DNA of 6,413 bases, taken from IMG/VR virus record IMGVR_UViG_2778261509_000013. One strand, 5' to 3'. Below the pieces are notes generated by a model that was not told where the DNA came from, did not search any database, and saw only the letters and a program-made list of their open reading frames with translations. This DNA comes from a virus (lineage: Duplodnaviria > Heunggongvirae > Uroviricota > Caudoviricetes). Every line of letters begins with the position of its first letter. The first letter of the stretch is position 1. The position numbers and the translations under genes are program-made. Of this stretch, positions 1 to 6,413 are shown piece after piece.

Positions 1-1005
1 TTAATCCCCCGTGGACACTGCGTGGACACTTACGCCACCTTTCAGCGGATTAAGGGCCACCGCATCCTGCAGGTAATCCGGTGCAAAATGCGCATATGCC
101 ATTGTTTGCTGAATGGTTGCGTGACCAAGAATCTTCTGAAGCGCAATAATGTTTCCTCCGTTCATCACAAAATGGCTGGCGAACGTATGCCGCAGCACAT
201 GTGCAGCCTGGCCTTTTGGTAAATCGGGCTTAACTCTTTTCAGCGCCAGGCAGAATTCCCGGTACTTCACCTCAAACAAGCCGCCTGTTTCTCTGGTTTT
301 GATCGCCTCACAAACTGCCTGCGAAATTGGCACTGTTCTCTTCCGGCCATTTTTGGTTTCAAGAAACGTTACACGGTTATGAACTATCTGTTCACCACGA
401 AGCTTACAAGCTTCACTCCAGCGCGCCCCTGTGCTTAAACACAAAAGCGCAACACGCCAGTAGTCGCCCTCCAGTGTATCGAGCAATAGCGCCACTTCCT
501 TCTGTGACAGGAACGCCATTTCTCGTGGAGATACATAAAGAATAGAAATTCCCCTTACTGGATGTTCTGCATCCCAAAGACCTATTTTTTTCAGCACGGT
601 AAACATTCCGGATAACCGATTCATGTACCTGTTAGCAGATGACGGTTTCAATCCTTCAGCTATCTTTTGAGAACGCCACGCGATAATTTTCAGCTTATCA
701 AGATCCACAGCCTGCATATCAGCGCCAAGCTCATTGATTATGTTGCGCAGTTGTTTTCGGTCTTCTTCCGCCTTACGCCTGTGCTGGCCGTGATACATCC
801 ACCACAACTCAAGCAAATCATTTAGCGTTCGACGATCACGGTAGCCCTGTATATATTCCCGCTTTTCAGCGTTCGCCATGATGTAGCGTTCAGTGGCCAC
901 CGCTACCGATTTTTTGTCAAATACCTTACGCACGCGCTTTCCCTTGCGTCCGTTCGGCCTGATGTCCAGCAAATAACGACCATCTTCGAGCTTCTTAATC
1001 GACAT
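1..1005 (-). CDS. int: Tyrosine recombinase / phage integrase (P2 Int-like), complete; stop codon at 1..3
   Basis: The 339-aa minus ORF contains tyrosine-recombinase motifs: a box I arginine (LSTGARWSE), HVLRHTFAS (HxxR), and GH...TMAYAHF with the catalytic Tyr near the C-terminus. The N-terminus MSIKKLEDGRYLLDIRPNGRKGKR resembles P2-family integrases (recalled, not searched). The ORF track starts at TTG 1018..1020; the in-frame ATG at 1003..1005 is preferred because a GGAGGG Shine-Dalgarno lies about 7 nt upstream on the minus strand. Confidence 0.9.
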   Translation of the reverse strand: MSIKKLEDGRYLLDIRPNGRKGKRVRKVFDKKSVAVATERYIMANAEKREYIQGYRDRRTLNDLLELWWMYHGQHRRKAEEDRKQLRNIINELGADMQAVDLDKLKIIAWRSQKIAEGLKPSSANRYMNRLSGMFTVLKKIGLWDAEHPVRGISILYVSPREMAFLSQKEVALLLDTLEGDYWRVALLCLSTGARWSEACKLRGEQIVHNRVTFLETKNGRKRTVPISQAVCEAIKTRETGGLFEVKYREFCLALKRVKPDLPKGQAAHVLRHTFASHFVMNGGNIIALQKILGHATIQQTMAYAHFAPDYLQDAVALNPLKGGVSVHAVSTGD

Positions 1006-1101
1006 TACGAAGCCCTCCAATGAACCGCTCTACAATTTCTCCAGCCTCTTTCCAGCAATAATCAGACCAGACAAAAAGCAGGTCTAACCAGTTTTCTGGC
1101 C

Positions 1102-1422
1102 TCAGCGGGATAATTTTTGGATTGTTTCGGTTGAAACGCGATCTCCCTCCGAATTGCAGGAACCATCAAGAGAGAGAGCCGGAGAAATTTGCCCGACCTC
1201 CGGCATCGTTTCATCTGTTGATAACCAATAAGCATACTTCTTAAATTTAGGGTGTTTCGTAACCTTAAGTAAGGCACCCTCTGTTACTTGCTTCCCCCTC
1301 ACCTCATAGTTAGTTACCGTCCCATAAGGCAGCCCAACACAATCCGCAAACTCCTGGCGGGTCATACCTTCTGCTTCACGAATCAGGCGAAATTTTTCAC
1401 CCATGCTTGACAAAGATGCCAT
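1102..1422 (-). CDS. C: Phage immunity repressor, P2 C-like helix-turn-helix protein (~106 aa)
   Basis: The translation has an HTH segment (MTRQEFADCVGLPYGTVTNYEVRGKQ) and a C-terminal region (KFKKYAYWLSTDETMPEVGQISPALSLDG) resembling the P2 C repressor as recalled. It sits directly upstream of int on the same strand, as in P2. The ORF track starts at GTG 1474..1476; the ATG at 1420..1422 is preferred because GGAGGA lies about 10 nt upstream on the minus strand. Confidence 0.8.
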   Translation of the reverse strand: MASLSSMGEKFRLIREAEGMTRQEFADCVGLPYGTVTNYEVRGKQVTEGALLKVTKHPKFKKYAYWLSTDETMPEVGQISPALSLDGSCNSEGDRVSTETIQKLSR

Positions 1423-1535
1423 ATCGGGCATATCCTCCATCGCAACATGCCACATCGGGCACAAACATAAAAACACTCAAATAAGCCGATATAAGCCATT
1501 TTGAGCCATTCGAACGAATTAGGGAGATTACCACA
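1423..1535. promoter_or_regulatory. Divergent promoter/operator switch region between C (leftward) and cox (rightward); includes three tandem 10-bp repeats at 1481..1510
   Basis: A 113-bp AT-rich gap separates two divergently transcribed regulator genes. Three contiguous 10-bp repeats (ATAAGCCGAT / ATAAGCCATT / TTGAGCCATT) lie 26..55 bp upstream of the cox ATG. P2-type C repressors are known to bind direct repeats. The -35/-10 hexamers could not be placed confidently by eye. Confidence 0.5.
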
Positions 1536-1823
1536 ATGAGCGAATCAGAGCTTGGGGGGTTCATTCAGGTAGCACCATATCCACTTGAAGCGGTGCCATA
1601 TCAACTATTCGCCAAGATGATCGGCCGCAAGGAATCCACAGTCAGAACCATGATTGACGCAGCAAAGCTACCGACAATTGACTTTGTGAAACCAGGTTCA
1701 GTAAAGACGCGTGCATCAGAAAACTGGGTATATCTGCCAGCATTTAACGAAGGCATGCGCAAAGCGTTTTTTGAGCAACCGAAAGAACGCCGCGACGCAT
1801 GGTTGTTGTGGCTGGGACTTTAG
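1536..1823 (+). CDS. cox: Cox-like excisionase/transcriptional regulator (95 aa)
   Basis: The translation ends ...RRDAWLLWLGL and contains AVPYQLFAKMIGRKESTVRTMIDAAKLP and NWVYLPAFNEG, resembling P2 Cox (recalled motifs PYQEFAKLIG, YWVYLPAWN, WLMWLGL). A GGGAGA Shine-Dalgarno lies 8 nt upstream of the ATG. It is the first gene of the rightward operon, opposite C. Confidence 0.85.
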   Translation: MSESELGGFIQVAPYPLEAVPYQLFAKMIGRKESTVRTMIDAAKLPTIDFVKPGSVKTRASENWVYLPAFNEGMRKAFFEQPKERRDAWLLWLGL

Positions 1824-1829
1824 TCATAA

Positions 1830-2036
1830 ATGACCAGCCATATCATCAGCGCCATTCTGACCCTTGTTTTTATTGAGATAGGCGTAATAGAGATCTATTT
1901 GTTTCGCAAGTTAACGGGACATGAAGAACGCTTTATTGAACTCAGCATTGAATATATCGCCGCTTATACCAAAGGACTTTTCCCGGCAGCTATTGGGGCG
2001 ATGTTTATAGCGTTTGTTATCTGGTTTATCGGGTGA
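1830..2036 (+). CDS. Small hydrophobic (two predicted transmembrane segments) early protein, 68 aa, unknown function
   Basis: The ORF starts 6 nt after the cox stop. The translation has two hydrophobic stretches (IISAILTLVFIEIGVIEIYLF and LFPAAIGAMFIAFVIWFIG) around a charged loop. No clear Shine-Dalgarno, so it may depend on coupling to cox. Confidence 0.5.
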   Translation: MTSHIISAILTLVFIEIGVIEIYLFRKLTGHEERFIELSIEYIAAYTKGLFPAAIGAMFIAFVIWFIG

Positions 2037-2075
2037 GAAACCTGACAACCCACAACTACTGCAATGAGGGTAATT

Positions 2076-2183
2076 ATGTGTGGCATGGACAAATTGGACC
2101 TTATGTTAATTGTAATACTATCAATTAACTTCGGTTACCTCTTAAGCGGCGCAATTCTCATGTGCGGAGGCAAACGAAAATGA
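2076..2183 (+). CDS. Possible 35-aa hydrophobic peptide (MCGMDKLDLMLIVILSINFGYLLSGAILMCGGKRK); not in ORF track
   Basis: ATG at 2076 with GAGGG 5 nt upstream; the stop TGA overlaps the next ATG (ATGA at 2180..2183). Low confidence because the ORF spans an AT-rich segment containing a perfect palindrome that could instead be regulatory DNA. Confidence 0.25.
   Translation: MCGMDKLDLMLIVILSINFGYLLSGAILMCGGKRK
2105..2129. repeat. Perfect 8-bp inverted repeat GTTAATTG-N9-CAATTAAC (candidate dimeric protein-binding site)
   Basis: Read directly: gttaattg (2105..2112), spacer taatactat, caattaac (2122..2129). It lies in the most AT-rich part of the cox-to-A interval. Confidence 0.5.
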
Positions 2184-2287
2184 ACCAGCAGTCCGCAAAA
2201 CGTGAAAACAATGCGATGCGATTTAATCGCAAATATTTTGAGTTCGGCCTCTATGCCGGAATAATTAAATCTGTACAGAGTCTTTAA
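2180..2287 (+). CDS. Small basic ORF, 35 aa (MNQQSAKRENNAMRFNRKYFEFGLYAGIIKSVQSL); not in ORF track
   Basis: GGAGG at 2166..2170 lies 9 nt upstream of ATG 2180. The TAA stop at 2285..2287 is 1 nt before the ATG of the next gene (2289), suggesting translational coupling. Confidence 0.4.
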   Translation: MNQQSAKRENNAMRFNRKYFEFGLYAGIIKSVQSL

Positions 2288-2288
2288 C

Positions 2289-2630
2289 ATGAAACAGCAA
2301 CGTAATTCACGCTTTCGCAATGGTGCAGAACGCCACGCTAACCGTTTTGCTACCAGTGCATCACGCAGCAACATCCGCTACAGCCTGAGTGATACACACG
2401 CAACGCCGGATGGCTACCCAGTAAAACAAATCGGCGAGCATGCCTGGCTGATTGAGAAAGCTGGAATCGTGATCCACAAATGCCCACGCAATCCGTTTAC
2501 CGGAAACCGCATTTTTGCATTGAGCTGCGGCGACAATCACTTCGGGCAGGATTTCACATTATACGAAGCACTACGCACGGTTGATCGTCTGCTTCGCGGG
2601 CAAAGTTTTATTAAACAGGCTGATTTATAA
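2289..2630 (+). CDS. Hypothetical early protein, 113 aa, Arg-rich N-terminus
   Basis: ORF-track ORF on the operon strand, immediately downstream of the small ORF (stop/start 1 nt apart). No recognisable family from the translation. Confidence 0.6.
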   Translation: MKQQRNSRFRNGAERHANRFATSASRSNIRYSLSDTHATPDGYPVKQIGEHAWLIEKAGIVIHKCPRNPFTGNRIFALSCGDNHFGQDFTLYEALRTVDRLLRGQSFIKQADL

Positions 2631-2640
2631 CAGGTGCTTT

Positions 2641-2919
2641 ATGACCAAAGAGCATGCACAAGGTGTATTTATCCGTTTTATTGATTTTCGCGGTGAACTG
2701 TTATTACGCGCATCGGCTATTGATGCTGTAGTCCCGGCAGCAAAAGATGTGGCCACTTACCTTTATCTGAACGGCACGCGATTGTTTGTGGAACTTCCGT
2801 ACCAGACCGTACGAGAAATCATTAGTGAAGCTGAAAAGGCACGCCAAGCTAATGGCGATGCACCCTATATCGAAATTATTTGTATGGATTCAGAAGCTGA
2901 AATTAAGAAAGCAGATTAA
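2641..2919 (+). CDS. Hypothetical early protein, 92 aa (MTKEHAQGVFIRF...)
   Basis: The ORF track starts at TTG 2581, which overlaps the upstream gene. The ATG at 2641 is preferred: AGGTG lies 5 nt upstream and it starts 10 nt after the upstream stop. Confidence 0.6.
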   Translation: MTKEHAQGVFIRFIDFRGELLLRASAIDAVVPAAKDVATYLYLNGTRLFVELPYQTVREIISEAEKARQANGDAPYIEIICMDSEAEIKKAD

Positions 2920-2930
2920 AGGGCGTTGTG

Positions 2931-3173
2931 ATGGGCAAAGAATATAAAACTCTCATTAACAAAGCACTTGAGCGTTTTTATTTTCGCTTAAGTGCATCAG
3001 GCGCTCATGCTGAACGTGCAGCCCGTGACTCATTGACCAGGGCAATCCGGAGTCTGTATGACGTGGCTTTTTACGCTGATGATCTGGATGCACTTAACGA
3101 ACTTTCCGAGCTGATCTGTGCCGCAGAATGCGGGGAACATATTGAACCGTATAAGCTGGGGAATATTGCATGA
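2931..3173 (+). CDS. Hypothetical early protein, 80 aa
   Basis: ATG at 2931 (ORF track starts at GTG 2928) with AAGGG 7 nt upstream. The stop TGA overlaps the next ATG (ATGA at 3170..3173). Confidence 0.6.
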   Translation: MGKEYKTLINKALERFYFRLSASGAHAERAARDSLTRAIRSLYDVAFYADDLDALNELSELICAAECGEHIEPYKLGNIA

Positions 3174-3283
3174 GTATATTTATCTCATGGCTTGTTCTGA
3201 TTATTTCGGTGGTTTGCGCAATTGGTATTATGCGAATTATTCATTCAGTAAAAAAGATTGAACGTTTTTTCACTGGCGAATAA
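3170..3283 (+). CDS. 37-aa single-pass membrane peptide (MSIFISWLVLIISVVCAIGIMRIIHSVKKIERFFTGE); not in ORF track
   Basis: ATGA start/stop overlap with the upstream gene; GGGGAA about 6 nt upstream. The translation is an N-terminal hydrophobic helix followed by a charged tail, the architecture of small membrane toxins and phage membrane peptides. Confidence 0.4.
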   Translation: MSIFISWLVLIISVVCAIGIMRIIHSVKKIERFFTGE

Positions 3284-3376
3284 CAGCATAAACAAAACAC
3301 CAGATTAAATACGAAAACCTGAAAACAATCCGCATTCGCGGAGGCGTTCGCACACGTAAATAACGGAGATACAAAA

Positions 3377-3745
3377 ATGTACGCAAAAGAAGAAGGCATT
3401 ATTCACAACCTGAATGAAATCGCAGATATGCAAGGTGAAGTAGCAAAAGAAGCCATGGCGAATGGCCACATGGACACCGCAACTCTCTCATTAATAATCG
3501 CAAAAACTGCTACTGAAGCCGCTGAAATCATCGAAAAACAGGCCCACGAACTGGAAGTTCTCAGGGCACAGCGAACAAAAGAAAATTCGCCCGCCACCAA
3601 TATCGGCAAGCGAGTTCGCCTCACTGTTGCTGACGACAAAGTTTACATCATCGTGGCTGAAGACCAGGAGAAACTCTTAATAAAGACAATCTCCGCCAGC
3701 CCCGCTCTGGAAGTTAATAAAAAAGAAGTCCACTTCATTGACTGA
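3377..3745 (+). CDS. Hypothetical early protein, 122 aa, acidic, predicted helical N-terminal half
   Basis: ORF-track ORF with GGAG 8 nt upstream of the ATG. No recognisable family. Confidence 0.65.
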   Translation: MYAKEEGIIHNLNEIADMQGEVAKEAMANGHMDTATLSLIIAKTATEAAEIIEKQAHELEVLRAQRTKENSPATNIGKRVRLTVADDKVYIIVAEDQEKLLIKTISASPALEVNKKEVHFID

Positions 3746-3757
3746 CGGAATAACGCA

Positions 3758-4087
3758 ATGGAGAAGCTGAAATATCACATGGCTCTGATGAGCCACATAT
3801 TGAAAAGCGCAAGTGGCTTTTATGTATACCCGTTCAGTCCTTCATGGGATGCGGAGCTACAGCAGCTACTGAATGAAGGCATTCTCATCGCAACGAGCAA
3901 GTACAACGCGATTTTTCATCACAACGGCAACGTCGTTGAAGTATGGATTGCTAATCGCTGGTACGGCTACGGCTGGCTGAACCGCGTTAACGGACGCGAG
4001 ACTGACGCCCGTTGCACCCGCCCACGCTTTCGCACCATGTACCGCCTGCATCAAATGGTGCAGGCCTTCCAGGCAAAGGAAACGTAA
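3758..4087 (+). CDS. Hypothetical early protein, 109 aa, Trp/Tyr-rich
   Basis: ORF-track ORF with a weak Shine-Dalgarno (GGA); an internal start is possible. Its stop overlaps the next start (TAATG at 4085..4089). Confidence 0.55.
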   Translation: MEKLKYHMALMSHILKSASGFYVYPFSPSWDAELQQLLNEGILIATSKYNAIFHHNGNVVEVWIANRWYGYGWLNRVNGRETDARCTRPRFRTMYRLHQMVQAFQAKET

Positions 4088-4290
4088 TGGCAATTAAGCA
4101 TTTTCCCGTCGTTCGCTTTACCTCCAGAGAGCGCGAATACGAGGTCGACGAACGCCTGATTACCACAATCGACAAACACCGTTCAGAAAAGGATGCACAT
4201 CACATCTATCTCACTGACGGCACTTACTTCTGCGCCACGAATGTGGTGCGGGTGAACCTTATCCGACAGGTACAGGAGTCACGCAGATGA
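4087..4290 (+). CDS. Hypothetical early protein, 67 aa (MAIKHFPVVRF...)
   Basis: The ORF track starts at 4012 with an unlikely N-terminal extension. The ATG at 4087 is preferred: AAGGAAA lies about 6 nt upstream and TAATG couples it to the upstream gene. Its stop overlaps the next ATG (ATGA at 4287..4290). Confidence 0.55.
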   Translation: MAIKHFPVVRFTSREREYEVDERLITTIDKHRSEKDAHHIYLTDGTYFCATNVVRVNLIRQVQESRR

Positions 4291-4878: not shown

Positions 4879-4950
4879 TCAGGTTACATTTCCGCTGCAC
4901 CTTATAAAACGGGTGCCGGGATTCTCAACCCGATACAGAGCAAAGCGCAT

Positions 4951-4972
4951 AACCGCGCCAGCGGTTTTTTTG
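4951..4972 (+). terminator. Rho-independent terminator-like hairpin plus T-tract on the operon strand
   Basis: AACCGC-GCCA-GCGGTT followed by a 7-T run (4965..4971), about 125 nt downstream of the 4529..4828 stop. Confidence 0.55.
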
Positions 4973-4983
4973 TGCGTACTGTA

Positions 4984-5012
4984 TTGCCACGTCTTTTTCG
5001 CGTCAGAATTAT
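4984..5012 (+). promoter_or_regulatory. Candidate sigma70-type internal promoter (TTGCCA-17 bp-AATTAT)
   Basis: The -35 TTGCCA (4984..4989) matches consensus at 5 of 6 positions, the spacer is 17 bp, and the -10 AATTAT (5007..5012) matches at 4 of 6. It lies just downstream of the terminator and upstream of the stable hairpin. By-eye match only. Confidence 0.3.
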
Positions 5013-5026
5013 GGCGGGGCGTACGG

Positions 5027-5045
5027 GGCCGACTTCGGTCGGGCC
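5027..5045 (+). other. Stable stem-loop with a C(UUCG)G tetraloop (GGCCGAC-TTCG-GTCGG(G)CC)
   Basis: Read directly: 5-bp perfect stem ccgac/gtcgg closing a TTCG loop (5034..5037), extended by 2 bp across a 1-nt bulge. There is no clean T-tract after it, so it is unlikely to be a terminator. Confidence 0.5.
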
Positions 5046-5064
5046 GGATTCTTTGCTCTCCGGT

Positions 5065-5105
5065 GTTGAGAACCCTGTACGTCTCGCCACCCCGAGATTC
5101 TCAAC
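5065..5105. repeat. Inverted repeat GTTGAGAA-N25-TTCTCAAC upstream of the 5151 gene; related motif copies at 4921..4945 and 5051..5058
   Basis: Perfect 8-bp arms at 5065..5072 and 5098..5105. The motif ATTCTCAAC also occurs at 4921..4929. A second motif, GAGCAAAG, occurs at 4938..4945 and 5133..5140, with its reverse complement CTTTGCTC at 5051..5058. Confidence 0.5.
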
Positions 5106-5150: not shown

Positions 5151-5381
5151 ATGGCAAACCGCAAACAGCACCGCGCTATCGCGGAGCGTCGTCACATCCA
5201 GACTGAAATCAACCGCAGACTTTCCCGCGCATCACGCGTCGCGCAAATCATGCACATCAATATGTTGCATGAGCGCAGCCACGCACTATCAAACATTTAT
5301 TCCGCCTCTGTTTTCAGCTATCTGGCGGATGATCTGCACGAGCTTCAACAGCTCATCCAGCAGCAAAACAAACTCCATTAA
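5151..5381 (+). CDS. Hypothetical small basic protein, 76 aa (MANRKQHRAIAERRHIQTEINRRLSR...)
   Basis: AAAGAGG lies 7 nt upstream of the ATG. The Arg/Lys/His-rich N-terminus suggests nucleic-acid binding (inference). Confidence 0.55.
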   Translation: MANRKQHRAIAERRHIQTEINRRLSRASRVAQIMHINMLHERSHALSNIYSASVFSYLADDLHELQQLIQQQNKLH

Positions 5382-5453
5382 TTCCTGTTCCGGGCCTTTC
5401 CTGCACCTTGCGGCGGGAGGCCTTCGCACATCTGTAACAAGAGGATTGCCGCA

Positions 5454-5819
5454 ATGATTCTCGCCAACGACTTTCTTGAATACCTGCTCAACACAGAGCG
5501 TGATCTTGCCGCTCGCGTACGTGATCGTTATGACATGTATCTGAAATCCCTGCCTGTACCGCAGCTCGCTGACGGAAAGATTGTTATTGATGGTCGCTAC
5601 ATGATTGACAGCCACGAGGGAAATTACAGGCTTTACCGCATTGAAGGTGGCACCCCGTCCGTTATTGGCATTTACCAGCGCCCATCCTCTGCAATCGTCG
5701 ATGTGATTGCCGACAGCATCCGCATCACACATCGCCATGCCGACACAGAAGACACCGTGCTGGAAATTCAGCGGCTGGCTGCCGTCTGCCGCGACACCCT
5801 GAATGGCATGACGAAGTAA
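5454..5819 (+). CDS. Hypothetical protein, 121 aa
   Basis: AAGAGGA lies 9 nt upstream of the ATG; it ends 6 nt before the replication gene start. Confidence 0.6.
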   Translation: MILANDFLEYLLNTERDLAARVRDRYDMYLKSLPVPQLADGKIVIDGRYMIDSHEGNYRLYRIEGGTPSVIGIYQRPSSAIVDVIADSIRITHRHADTEDTVLEIQRLAAVCRDTLNGMTK

Positions 5820-5825
5820 ATCACT

Positions 5826-6413
5826 ATGACGGCAGAGTACATCAGGGACTGGCAACAACCGCGCCACGCAGTGGGACGTGAAGGAACGGGGATCCCCGTT
5901 CCTGAATCCGCGCTTTCCTCCTGGCTGGATGCCTACCGGGCAGAGAACGAGCGCCGCCAGGAAATGGCTGATGCGGCGTTCTCCGCCACGCCGCTGGGCA
6001 ACCTGATTAATAAAAGCCTGGATGCACAGGAAAAACAGGACAAAACCATCACACTGGCAGGAGACGCCAGAAAACAGGTACGCGGTGCGGTGGATGAAGC
6101 CATGGCCTCGCTGCGCCTGCTGCCGTCCTATCTGCGCGATCCGCTTATTCGCCACCTCTCCTTCCTGCGCAAAAAACAGGAAGCCGATCGCCGGAAAGGC
6201 AAAAAGAGCTGGCAGGCTGAACGCTACGCGCGCGGAACCCTGCGCAAAATATTCGAACGTCTGGACCGCACCGACCACCGCTGGCTGACACCGGGTTATC
6301 GCTCCCTTGCCGGACGCGAACGCCTGGATGATTTGCTTTACCTGCCGCAGCTCAACAAGCACCAGATACAGACGCTGGCCACCATGACGGCGGCGATGTT
6401 CAGCAGCACCTTC
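5826..6413 (+). CDS. A: Replication initiation protein, P2/186 gpA-like (rolling-circle endonuclease family), 5' partial; runs off the window end
   Basis: Hand translation from ATG 5826 is open to the window end (196 codons, no stop): MTAEYIRDWQQPRHAVGREG...LLPSYLRDPLIRHLSFLRKKQ...LAGRERLDDLLYLPQLNKHQIQTLATMTAAMFSS. Several segments resemble the N-terminal region of P2 gpA as recalled (PREAVGRER, RLPYFLRSLF, LAERDHYARLPGMNDKELKKFAARISSQLFMMY). The ORF track omits it because there is no stop in the window. Confidence 0.7.
   Translation, partial: MTAEYIRDWQQPRHAVGREGTGIPVPESALSSWLDAYRAENERRQEMADAAFSATPLGNLINKSLDAQEKQDKTITLAGDARKQVRGAVDEAMASLRLLPSYLRDPLIRHLSFLRKKQEADRRKGKKSWQAERYARGTLRKIFERLDRTDHRWLTPGYRSLAGRERLDDLLYLPQLNKHQIQTLATMTAAMFSSTF

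Follow-up and report, generated by a model that had tools for sequence, protein, structure and literature searches.

In phage PhiX174, the single N-terminal transmembrane helix of the E protein binds the host MraY through a specific face, and translation of the toxin gene hok is coupled to that of the mok frame located 5' of it. Several bacterial proteins of 30-50 amino acids (aa) with one helix and short tails, such as AcrZ, MgrB, MgtS, KdpF and CydX, pack on a larger membrane protein, and the small membrane toxins of the Ldr, Fst and TisB types have also been reviewed, of which the Ldr toxins have a basic C-terminus (PMC12648545). Here, we analyzed a gene for a 37-aa peptide (3170-3283, plus strand, including the TAA stop) in a stretch of 6,413 nucleotides (nt), referred to as the window, from the Caudoviricetes record IMGVR_UViG_2778261509_000013 of IMG/VR. 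This gene follows directly on a gene for an 80-aa DUF4754 protein. The proteins recorded as gp07 of phage P88 (YP_009113050.1), WP_000021665.1 and A0A069FJJ5 come from the same gene, located in the same place after DUF4754 and with the same 4-nt overlap, and these records carry no function. We propose, with a probability of roughly 0.45, that the peptide is a small inner-membrane protein which is made early together with DUF4754 and acts by helix-helix contact with a membrane partner or with itself.

The open reading frame (ORF) at 3170-3283 encodes MSIFISWLVLIISVVCAIGIMRIIHSVKKIERFFTGE. A preliminary description of this DNA had noticed here a 37-aa, single-transmembrane ORF with a hydrophobic helix followed by a basic/acidic tail, and both the sequence and the Hessa insertion scale agree with it. 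On this scale residues 3-21 sum to about -3.35 kcal/mol. The window has 51 ATG-started ORFs of 30 aa or longer, and no other 19-residue segment in them comes close in hydrophobicity, the runner-up being at -0.19. The AlphaFold2 (AF2) model, based on a 29-sequence alignment, is a single continuous helix over residues 2-35 with a mean predicted local distance difference test score (pLDDT) of 88.5. Based on the Hessa sum, the AF2 model and column conservation, the transmembrane helix was placed at residues 3-24 (IFISWLVLIISVVCAIGIMRII, 3176-3241). The charged C-terminal tail (HSVKKIERFFTGE, 3242-3280) contains four Lys/Arg and two Glu residues as well as a conserved K28-x-I30-E31-x-x-F34 motif, and is predicted to prolong the helix into the cytoplasm. 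By the positive-inside rule, these four basic residues and the lack of charge at the N-terminal end predict an N-out/C-in topology.

To examine how this gene has evolved, we gathered related loci via the DUF4754 protein (80 IMG/VR contigs and two GTDB genomes) and further loci via divergent DUF4754 proteins, divergent peptide alleles and annotated records. All 104 loci with this region, including an initial set in which the count was 98 of 98, have the ATGA overlap and a frame open from the same ATG. The ratio of nonsynonymous to synonymous polymorphism (pN/pS) is 0.20 in the ORF frame. Of the five remaining frames, four range from 1.0 to 1.6; the other, an antisense frame which shares third codon positions, has a pN/pS of 0.24 but does not stay open over the length of the ORF. 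The first 33 codons were compared in 31 distinct nucleotide versions, in which codon positions 1, 2 and 3 had 8, 3 and 15 variable sites, respectively. Between pairs of divergent allele groups in which synonymous sites are saturated (synonymous divergence, dS, 1.1-2.3), nonsynonymous divergence (dN) is 0.13-0.27 and dN/dS is 0.07-0.19. As judged from these substitution patterns, 3170-3283 is a genuine protein-coding gene under purifying selection, and the check suggested in the preliminary description, that the frame be conserved in relatives with mostly synonymous change, came out in its favor.

The start of the gene points in the same direction. The peptide ATG (3170-3172) overlaps the TGA stop (3171-3173) of the 80-aa gene, and a Shine-Dalgarno (SD)-like GGGGA (3158-3162, plus strand) is located 7 nt before this ATG, within the last DUF4754 codons. 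A purine-rich SD-like motif is present 4-7 nt 5' of the ATG in every lineage, with a predicted anti-SD duplex of -5.5 to -6.9 kcal/mol. It is written through different codons of the DUF4754 C-terminus, namely GGGGA with LGNIA, GGGAG with LGSAA, AGAGGG with IQRAT and GAGAGGG with IERAA, a pattern which is hard to explain if ribosomes do not start there. Thus, of the translational coupling claimed earlier, the ATGA overlap and its positioning hold at every locus, and the coupling itself is what such an arrangement would suggest.

By alignment, the window peptide belongs to an unnamed family, the P88 gp07 group; it is 97% identical to P88 gp07 over 37 aa, and no gaps were needed to align it with the other 28 members. 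It has the family signature M-[SN]-[IV]-F-x-S-W-x-x-L-I-...-A-I-G-I-x-[RK]-I-I-...-K-x-I-E-x-x-F, which is co-linear over 37-41 aa. Eight residues are invariant (M1, S6, W7, L10, A17, I24, I30 and F34) and another seven are nearly so (F4, I11, G19, I20, I23, K28 and E31). No significant match to the peptide was obtained in Pfam, PHROGs, NCBIfam or PADLOC; one match to phrog_5620 (E = 0.6) was treated as noise, and a Pfam scan at E <= 1 returned PET117 and DUF6007 only, both far under their cut-offs. An exhaustive phmmer search against 1.84 billion cluster representatives found nine clusters, all of them obvious relatives, which leaves no distant family from which a function could be borrowed. 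A profile search of a 5.8-billion set yielded 149 clusters at 90% identity. All relatives are 37-45 aa long and called hypothetical, and almost all come from Escherichia (E. coli, E. albertii, E. fergusonii and E. marmotae), with a few from Salmonella, Shigella and one Citrobacter phage.

Two length classes were observed in the family. Members of the 41-aa class end with ...FTG[DE]KRRK, and the window peptide belongs to the 37-aa class, which looks like a derivative in which Lys38 was changed to a stop, since one rare allele reads ...FFTGEKQSK. In addition, an A6 run (3250-3255) and a T6 run (3265-3270), both on the plus strand and within 3250-3270, serve as natural frameshift sites: alleles of 45 aa, in which the tail is replaced through a one-base change in A6 or T6, were found in 7 of 85 loci (about 8%) and in several database clusters.

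The conservation of the peptide is one-sided. Column entropy is periodic along the sequence, with a maximum of the conservation moment at 103-105 degrees per residue; 26 of 10,000 column shuffles reached the observed value at 102.9 degrees. The conserved positions form a heptad stripe (6, 10, 13, 17, 20, 24, 27, 31 and 34) with a mean entropy of 0.34 bits, compared with 1.01 elsewhere. In the predicted topology this stripe runs from S6/W7 at the periplasmic end, through the membrane, to K28, E31 and F34 in the cytoplasmic tail, and the small residues on it (S6, S/A13 and A17) are typical of helix packing. A stripe of this kind is expected of a helix that packs on another helix along its full length and would not be required by bulk hydrophobicity.

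The second component is the DUF4754 gene (2931-3173, plus strand), which encodes a soluble helical protein of 80 aa with a full-length match to Pfam PF15946 (E = 2.8e-54) and a match to phrog_2549. It is located directly 5' of the peptide gene, with the ATGA overlap kept, in 104 of the 104 loci. The order of the pair is maintained where downstream genes differ, and in one locus (L094) the pair sits straight after cox, the DUF4761 and phrog_3800 genes being absent. That the peptide is always found behind DUF4754 in such differing neighborhoods implies that the pair is a unit. The 186-like prophage of CFT073 does not contain this module. The peptide is the better conserved of the two: in the most divergent loci, identity to the proteins of the window is 36-40% for DUF4754 and 54-68% for the peptide. 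Moreover, one peptide allele (P0091) occurs behind a DUF4754 protein that is 40% identical to that of the window in locus L099 and behind one that is 82% identical in L100, and the hairpin region downstream is identical in these two loci. This suggests that recombination has joined different sequences at the ATGA overlap or close to it, and also that one peptide may work with very different partners. The AF2 model of DUF4754 (pLDDT 88.8) has helices at 4-48 and 52-66 and an extended C-terminus, the overall shape being that of a long helical hairpin with a third helix. A sequence search of the PDB with DUF4754 was empty, and all that Foldseek matched in PDB and BFVD were generic helical bundles at E > 0.7. 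Proteins of 103-128 aa named DUF4754 were considered as natural fusions with the peptide and rejected, as they are frameshifted or mis-started and mostly come from single low-quality contigs.

The genomic setting suggests when this pair would be made. The window represents the left end of a P88-type, P2-like prophage (genus Xuanwuvirus of the Peduoviridae), which confirms the P2-like setting given in the preliminary description. An integrase gene (1-1020) and a C-type helix-turn-helix (HTH) repressor gene (1102-1476) are on the minus strand, and cox (1536-1823) is on the plus strand; integrase, C-type HTH repressor and Cox are also encoded upstream of the peptide gene in related loci. Small plus-strand genes run from cox toward the replication gene A, which in related loci is found farther downstream. 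One promoter-like site (1407-1436, plus strand), matching the consensus at 10 of 12 positions, was found 5' of cox, within the 5' part of the minus-strand repressor gene. Promoter-like sites as a whole were not enriched in 1000-4200 (5 found versus 5.5 expected from shuffled sequence). The terminator-like sites on the plus strand from cox to the peptide gene were all weak, with no stem longer than 6 bp. Early expression is suggested by the known organization of P2 together with this same-strand, closely packed gene order, and a gene in such a place would be silent in the repressed lysogen.

Combining these observations, we suggest the following scenario for a small inner-membrane protein produced with DUF4754. 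The module would belong to a rightward early operon that starts at the C/Cox switch, and its products would appear in the early phase of the lytic cycle or once the prophage is induced. With its start overlapping the DUF4754 stop and a weak SD motif of its own, the peptide would be produced together with DUF4754. The product would be a bitopic peptide of 37-41 aa, with two N-terminal residues in the periplasm, residues 3 to about 24 spanning the membrane and the charged tail in the cytoplasm. The face formed by S6/W7, L10, S/A13, A17, I20, I24, K28, E31 and F34 might then pack on the transmembrane helix of a target or of its own copies, and the cytoplasmic end of this face would be open to the soluble DUF4754. 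Such a mode of action would resemble that of AcrZ, MgrB, MgtS and, in eukaryotes, phospholamban, as a functional analogy only. With these proteins and with KdpF and CydX, the peptide shares a length below 50 aa, one helix and short tails; its own conservation is limited to one face of the helix, and its predicted orientation is N-out/C-in. On the other hand, it has no sequence homology to the small single-pass regulators (no Pfam family at threshold), is encoded by a phage and would have a soluble co-translated partner. The preliminary description had also likened the architecture to that of phage effectors acting on the host membrane, which would be a reasonable guess at its function.

A more specific version of this scenario, which we consider rather doubtful, is that DUF4754 and the peptide form a two-part early host take-over device of P88-type phages, in which the peptide, with its conserved face, clamps a conserved essential inner-membrane protein of Escherichia and DUF4754 serves as a cytoplasmic co-factor. 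The target may be a component of division, transport or secretion or a protease, and the peptide may be an inhibitor like phospholamban or AcrZ.

Several observations weigh against contact with a membrane partner in concert with DUF4754. One-sided conservation would be equally expected for a homo-oligomeric pore, and the stripe, taken as a conservation pattern, does not tell a hetero-partner from a homo-oligomer. The occurrence of P0091 with two dissimilar DUF4754 proteins argues against a tightly co-evolving interface between the peptide and DUF4754, as far as can be judged from a sample of five to six allele groups. The terminal KRRK of the 41-aa form is, by alignment, lost from the 37-aa form, and the frameshift alleles, which replace the conserved tail, suggest that the tail may be dispensable in some settings. 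Finally, the proposed timing of expression is carried over by analogy from phage P2.

It is also possible, yet in our opinion unlikely, that the peptide is a toxin that damages the membrane by pore formation or depolarization, acting as a host-shutoff or kil-type early protein, a type I-toxin-like element or a holin-like element. The preliminary description had called its architecture Hok/Ldr-like. Like Hok/Gef and Ldr (35-50 aa), the peptide is small and has a single transmembrane helix, hok is likewise coupled to an upstream frame, the heptad stripe also fits a homo-oligomer, and selection against a harmful product could account for the frameshift alleles in about 8% of loci. The peptide also recalls the Ldr, Fst and TisB-type toxins (PMC12648545) in size, in its one hydrophobic helix and, for the 41-aa forms ending in KRRK, in a basic C-terminus. 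However, this likeness is one of generic architecture and found no support from Pfam, Rfam or an opposite-strand promoter. In the Pfam scan at E <= 1, the peptide had no match to Hok/Gef (PF01848), Ldr, TisB, Ibs, Fst or any other small-toxin family, and scanning the whole window against Rfam, also at E <= 1, revealed no Sok, Rdl or other antisense family near the peptide gene, its matches (C4, isrK and a sub-threshold CRISPR repeat) all being far downstream. A consensus scan of the minus strand over 1000-4200, which an atypical promoter could escape, found no promoter-like site. As judged by these searches, the peptide falls outside both the Hok/Gef and the Ldr families. It also lacks the periplasmic C-terminal domain with cysteines found in Hok, and its gene, unlike those of Hok and Ldr, would be internal to a long phage early operon. 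The gene 5' of it encodes a full conserved 80-aa protein with a 4-nt overlap, whereas that of hok is a leader frame laid over the toxin gene, and a stand-alone toxin cassette with its own promoter, a structured leader and an RNA antitoxin was not found at the peptide gene. Furthermore, the membrane span has no charged or strongly polar residues which could line a water-filled pore. As for lysis, the lysis genes of P2-like phages are in the late operon and the holin of a 186-like prophage is in the late region. PhiX174 E is a 91-aa microvirus lysis protein, whereas the peptide has 37 aa, is placed in the early operon of a temperate myovirus with a separate late lysis cassette and shows no similarity to E.

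Exclusion or defence, in which the peptide and DUF4754 would act at the inner membrane to keep out the DNA of other phages or satellites or to stop their development, appears improbable to us. The membrane location and the presence of this temperate phage gene in 23% of complete E. coli genomes would be in line with such a role, the high conservation would suit a conserved host entry component as the target, and anti-phage genes are known from P2-like phages (PMC9122126). However, PADLOC returned no match to the peptide, only noise for DUF4754 (E = 0.012, 11 bits) and noise-level matches for the neighbors. In addition, the module is invariant although defence cargo is usually swapped among phages, and it lies outside the known P2 defence hotspots, in an early operon that would be repressed and with no evident promoter of its own; for this reason the peptide would not be made in an established lysogen. 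Much less plausible, and to be regarded as very improbable, is that the ORF is regulatory, with the act of translation being important through a conserved downstream hairpin, or that an RNA or DNA element explains the conservation. This hairpin travels with the ORF, 45 nt 3' of its stop, and the A6 and T6 runs can pair, so that the 3' half of the ORF folds into a long imperfect hairpin; its fold z-scores are -1.8 on the plus strand and -2.6 on the minus strand, the local folding of the plus strand being not exceptional. On the other hand, the amino acid sequence is conserved with dN/dS of 0.07-0.19 at saturated synonymous sites, and the conserved residues show a helical periodicity which is not expected from constraint at the nucleotide level. 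On these two observations, RNA structure was rejected as the cause of the conservation.

The downstream hairpin is a conserved element in its own right. It is located at 3329-3342 (flanks 3320-3344, plus strand), about 35 nt before the next gene, and consists of TCCGC-ATTC-GCGGA (a 5-bp stem and a 4-nt loop) followed by GG (GCGGAGG), with an A-rich run on its 5' side. It is present in 104 of 104 loci and inherited with the peptide gene. The loop varies while the stem is kept, including one compensatory change from C:G to U:A (23 loci, five distinct sequences), and the G.U variants fit the plus-strand RNA only. Pairing was found in 99.2% of the cells compared, versus 36-64% when the partner was slid. 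A mosaic break to variable downstream genes occurs just 3' of the hairpin, and similarity to P88 ends near 3356. It is possibly an mRNA end or stability element, or a sequence marking the boundary of the module, as its conservation pattern would suggest. A terminator-like call on the minus strand (3342-3329) was set aside because it is this same hairpin; it would stop a minus-strand transcript before the ORF.

The gene is widespread and already annotated. Although the preliminary description had presented it as unannotated, it is a coding sequence (CDS) in P88 (gp07, 'membrane protein'), in vB_EcoM-569R5 ('putative membrane protein'), in E. coli E423 (WP_000021665.1) and in all 60 RefSeq records sampled at even spacing among the 1249 RefSeq E. 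coli records matching the ORF, in which a 'hypothetical protein' CDS lies under the match. Some members are named 'Prophage membrane protein' in UniRef (A0A069FJJ5). The further statement that the ORF falls below ORF-calling thresholds and would be missed by standard annotation does not hold either, as gene callers found it on nearly every contig examined; an occasional miss is RefSeq phage 520873, in which the ORF is intact and has no CDS. In phage 503458, both the DUF4754 and the peptide genes contain numerous frameshifts. The exact 37-aa sequence is present on at least 1000 contigs in public protein collections, and its 90% cluster has 183 members. Among 5426 complete E. coli genomes, 1248 (approximately 23%) contain the ORF, including O157:H7, O104:H4 and ST131 strains. 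A megablast search with the 2581-3760 segment matched 1367 of the 5426 genomes and 14 phage records, such as P88, P884B11, vB_EcoM-569R5 and Citrobacter phage Shae_phiSM. One 226-kb contig titled Vagococcus sp. WN89Y (NZ_JBQPOM010000071.1), and thus assigned to a Gram-positive genus, carries this E. coli-type prophage module with 98% protein identity, and is most likely a contamination or a mislabelled assembly. None of the papers in the library searched refers to the peptide, its accessions or DUF4754, the P88 paper and a paper on P2-like diversity both being silent on the peptide. The peptide gene reveals no annotation gap and no new toxin family.

Some other features of the window were also noticed. 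Directly after cox, a 68-aa protein (1830-2036, plus strand) with two hydrophobic segments matches phrog_14475 (E = 1e-41) and is hypothetical in related genomes, and several small membrane proteins are encoded in the early region of P88-type phages. Within a 253-bp stretch there are two coupled small ORFs on the plus strand. The ORF at 2076-2183 encodes a hydrophobic 35-aa peptide (MCGMDKLDLMLIVILSINFGYLLSGAILMCGGKRK), has GAGGG 5 nt 5' of its start and ends with a TGA overlapping the ATG of the ORF at 2180-2287, which encodes a basic 35-aa peptide (MNQQSAKRENNAMRFNRKYFEFGLYAGIIKSVQSL) and has GGAGG 9 nt upstream. Of 235 RefSeq E. coli genomes with a match, 8 were listed, and in these the adjoining DUF4761 gene is the only CDS annotated in this stretch. 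Both ORFs and their ATGA overlap are retained in locus L078 at 75% nucleotide identity, with a pN/pS of about 0.39 from this single pair. The label of an unannotated small membrane peptide fits the 2076-2287 pair better than the ORF at 3170-3283.

Further downstream on the plus strand, Rfam detected, above the gathering score, the Hfq-binding RNA isrK (4897-4971, 60.5 bits) and, adjoining it, a C4 antisense RNA of the P1/P7 type (5007-5094, 78.5 bits). Both are located just 5' of a small ORF (5151-5381), and in related loci a 'derepression protein' gene is found at that position. A 357-aa ORF on the minus strand (5289-6362) lies partly opposite the region which codes for the plus-strand replication protein A in related loci, and is probably a spurious antisense ORF.

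The peptide gene is under stronger constraint than its neighbors and is present in approximately 23% of complete E. coli genomes. The peptide offers a tractable case of how a temperate phage may act on the inner membrane of its host in the first minutes of lytic growth, and is a candidate binder of a conserved membrane target. If the take-over device described above were true, the peptide would be the founding member of a new family of small membrane-protein regulators encoded by phages, carried by about a quarter of E. coli genomes.

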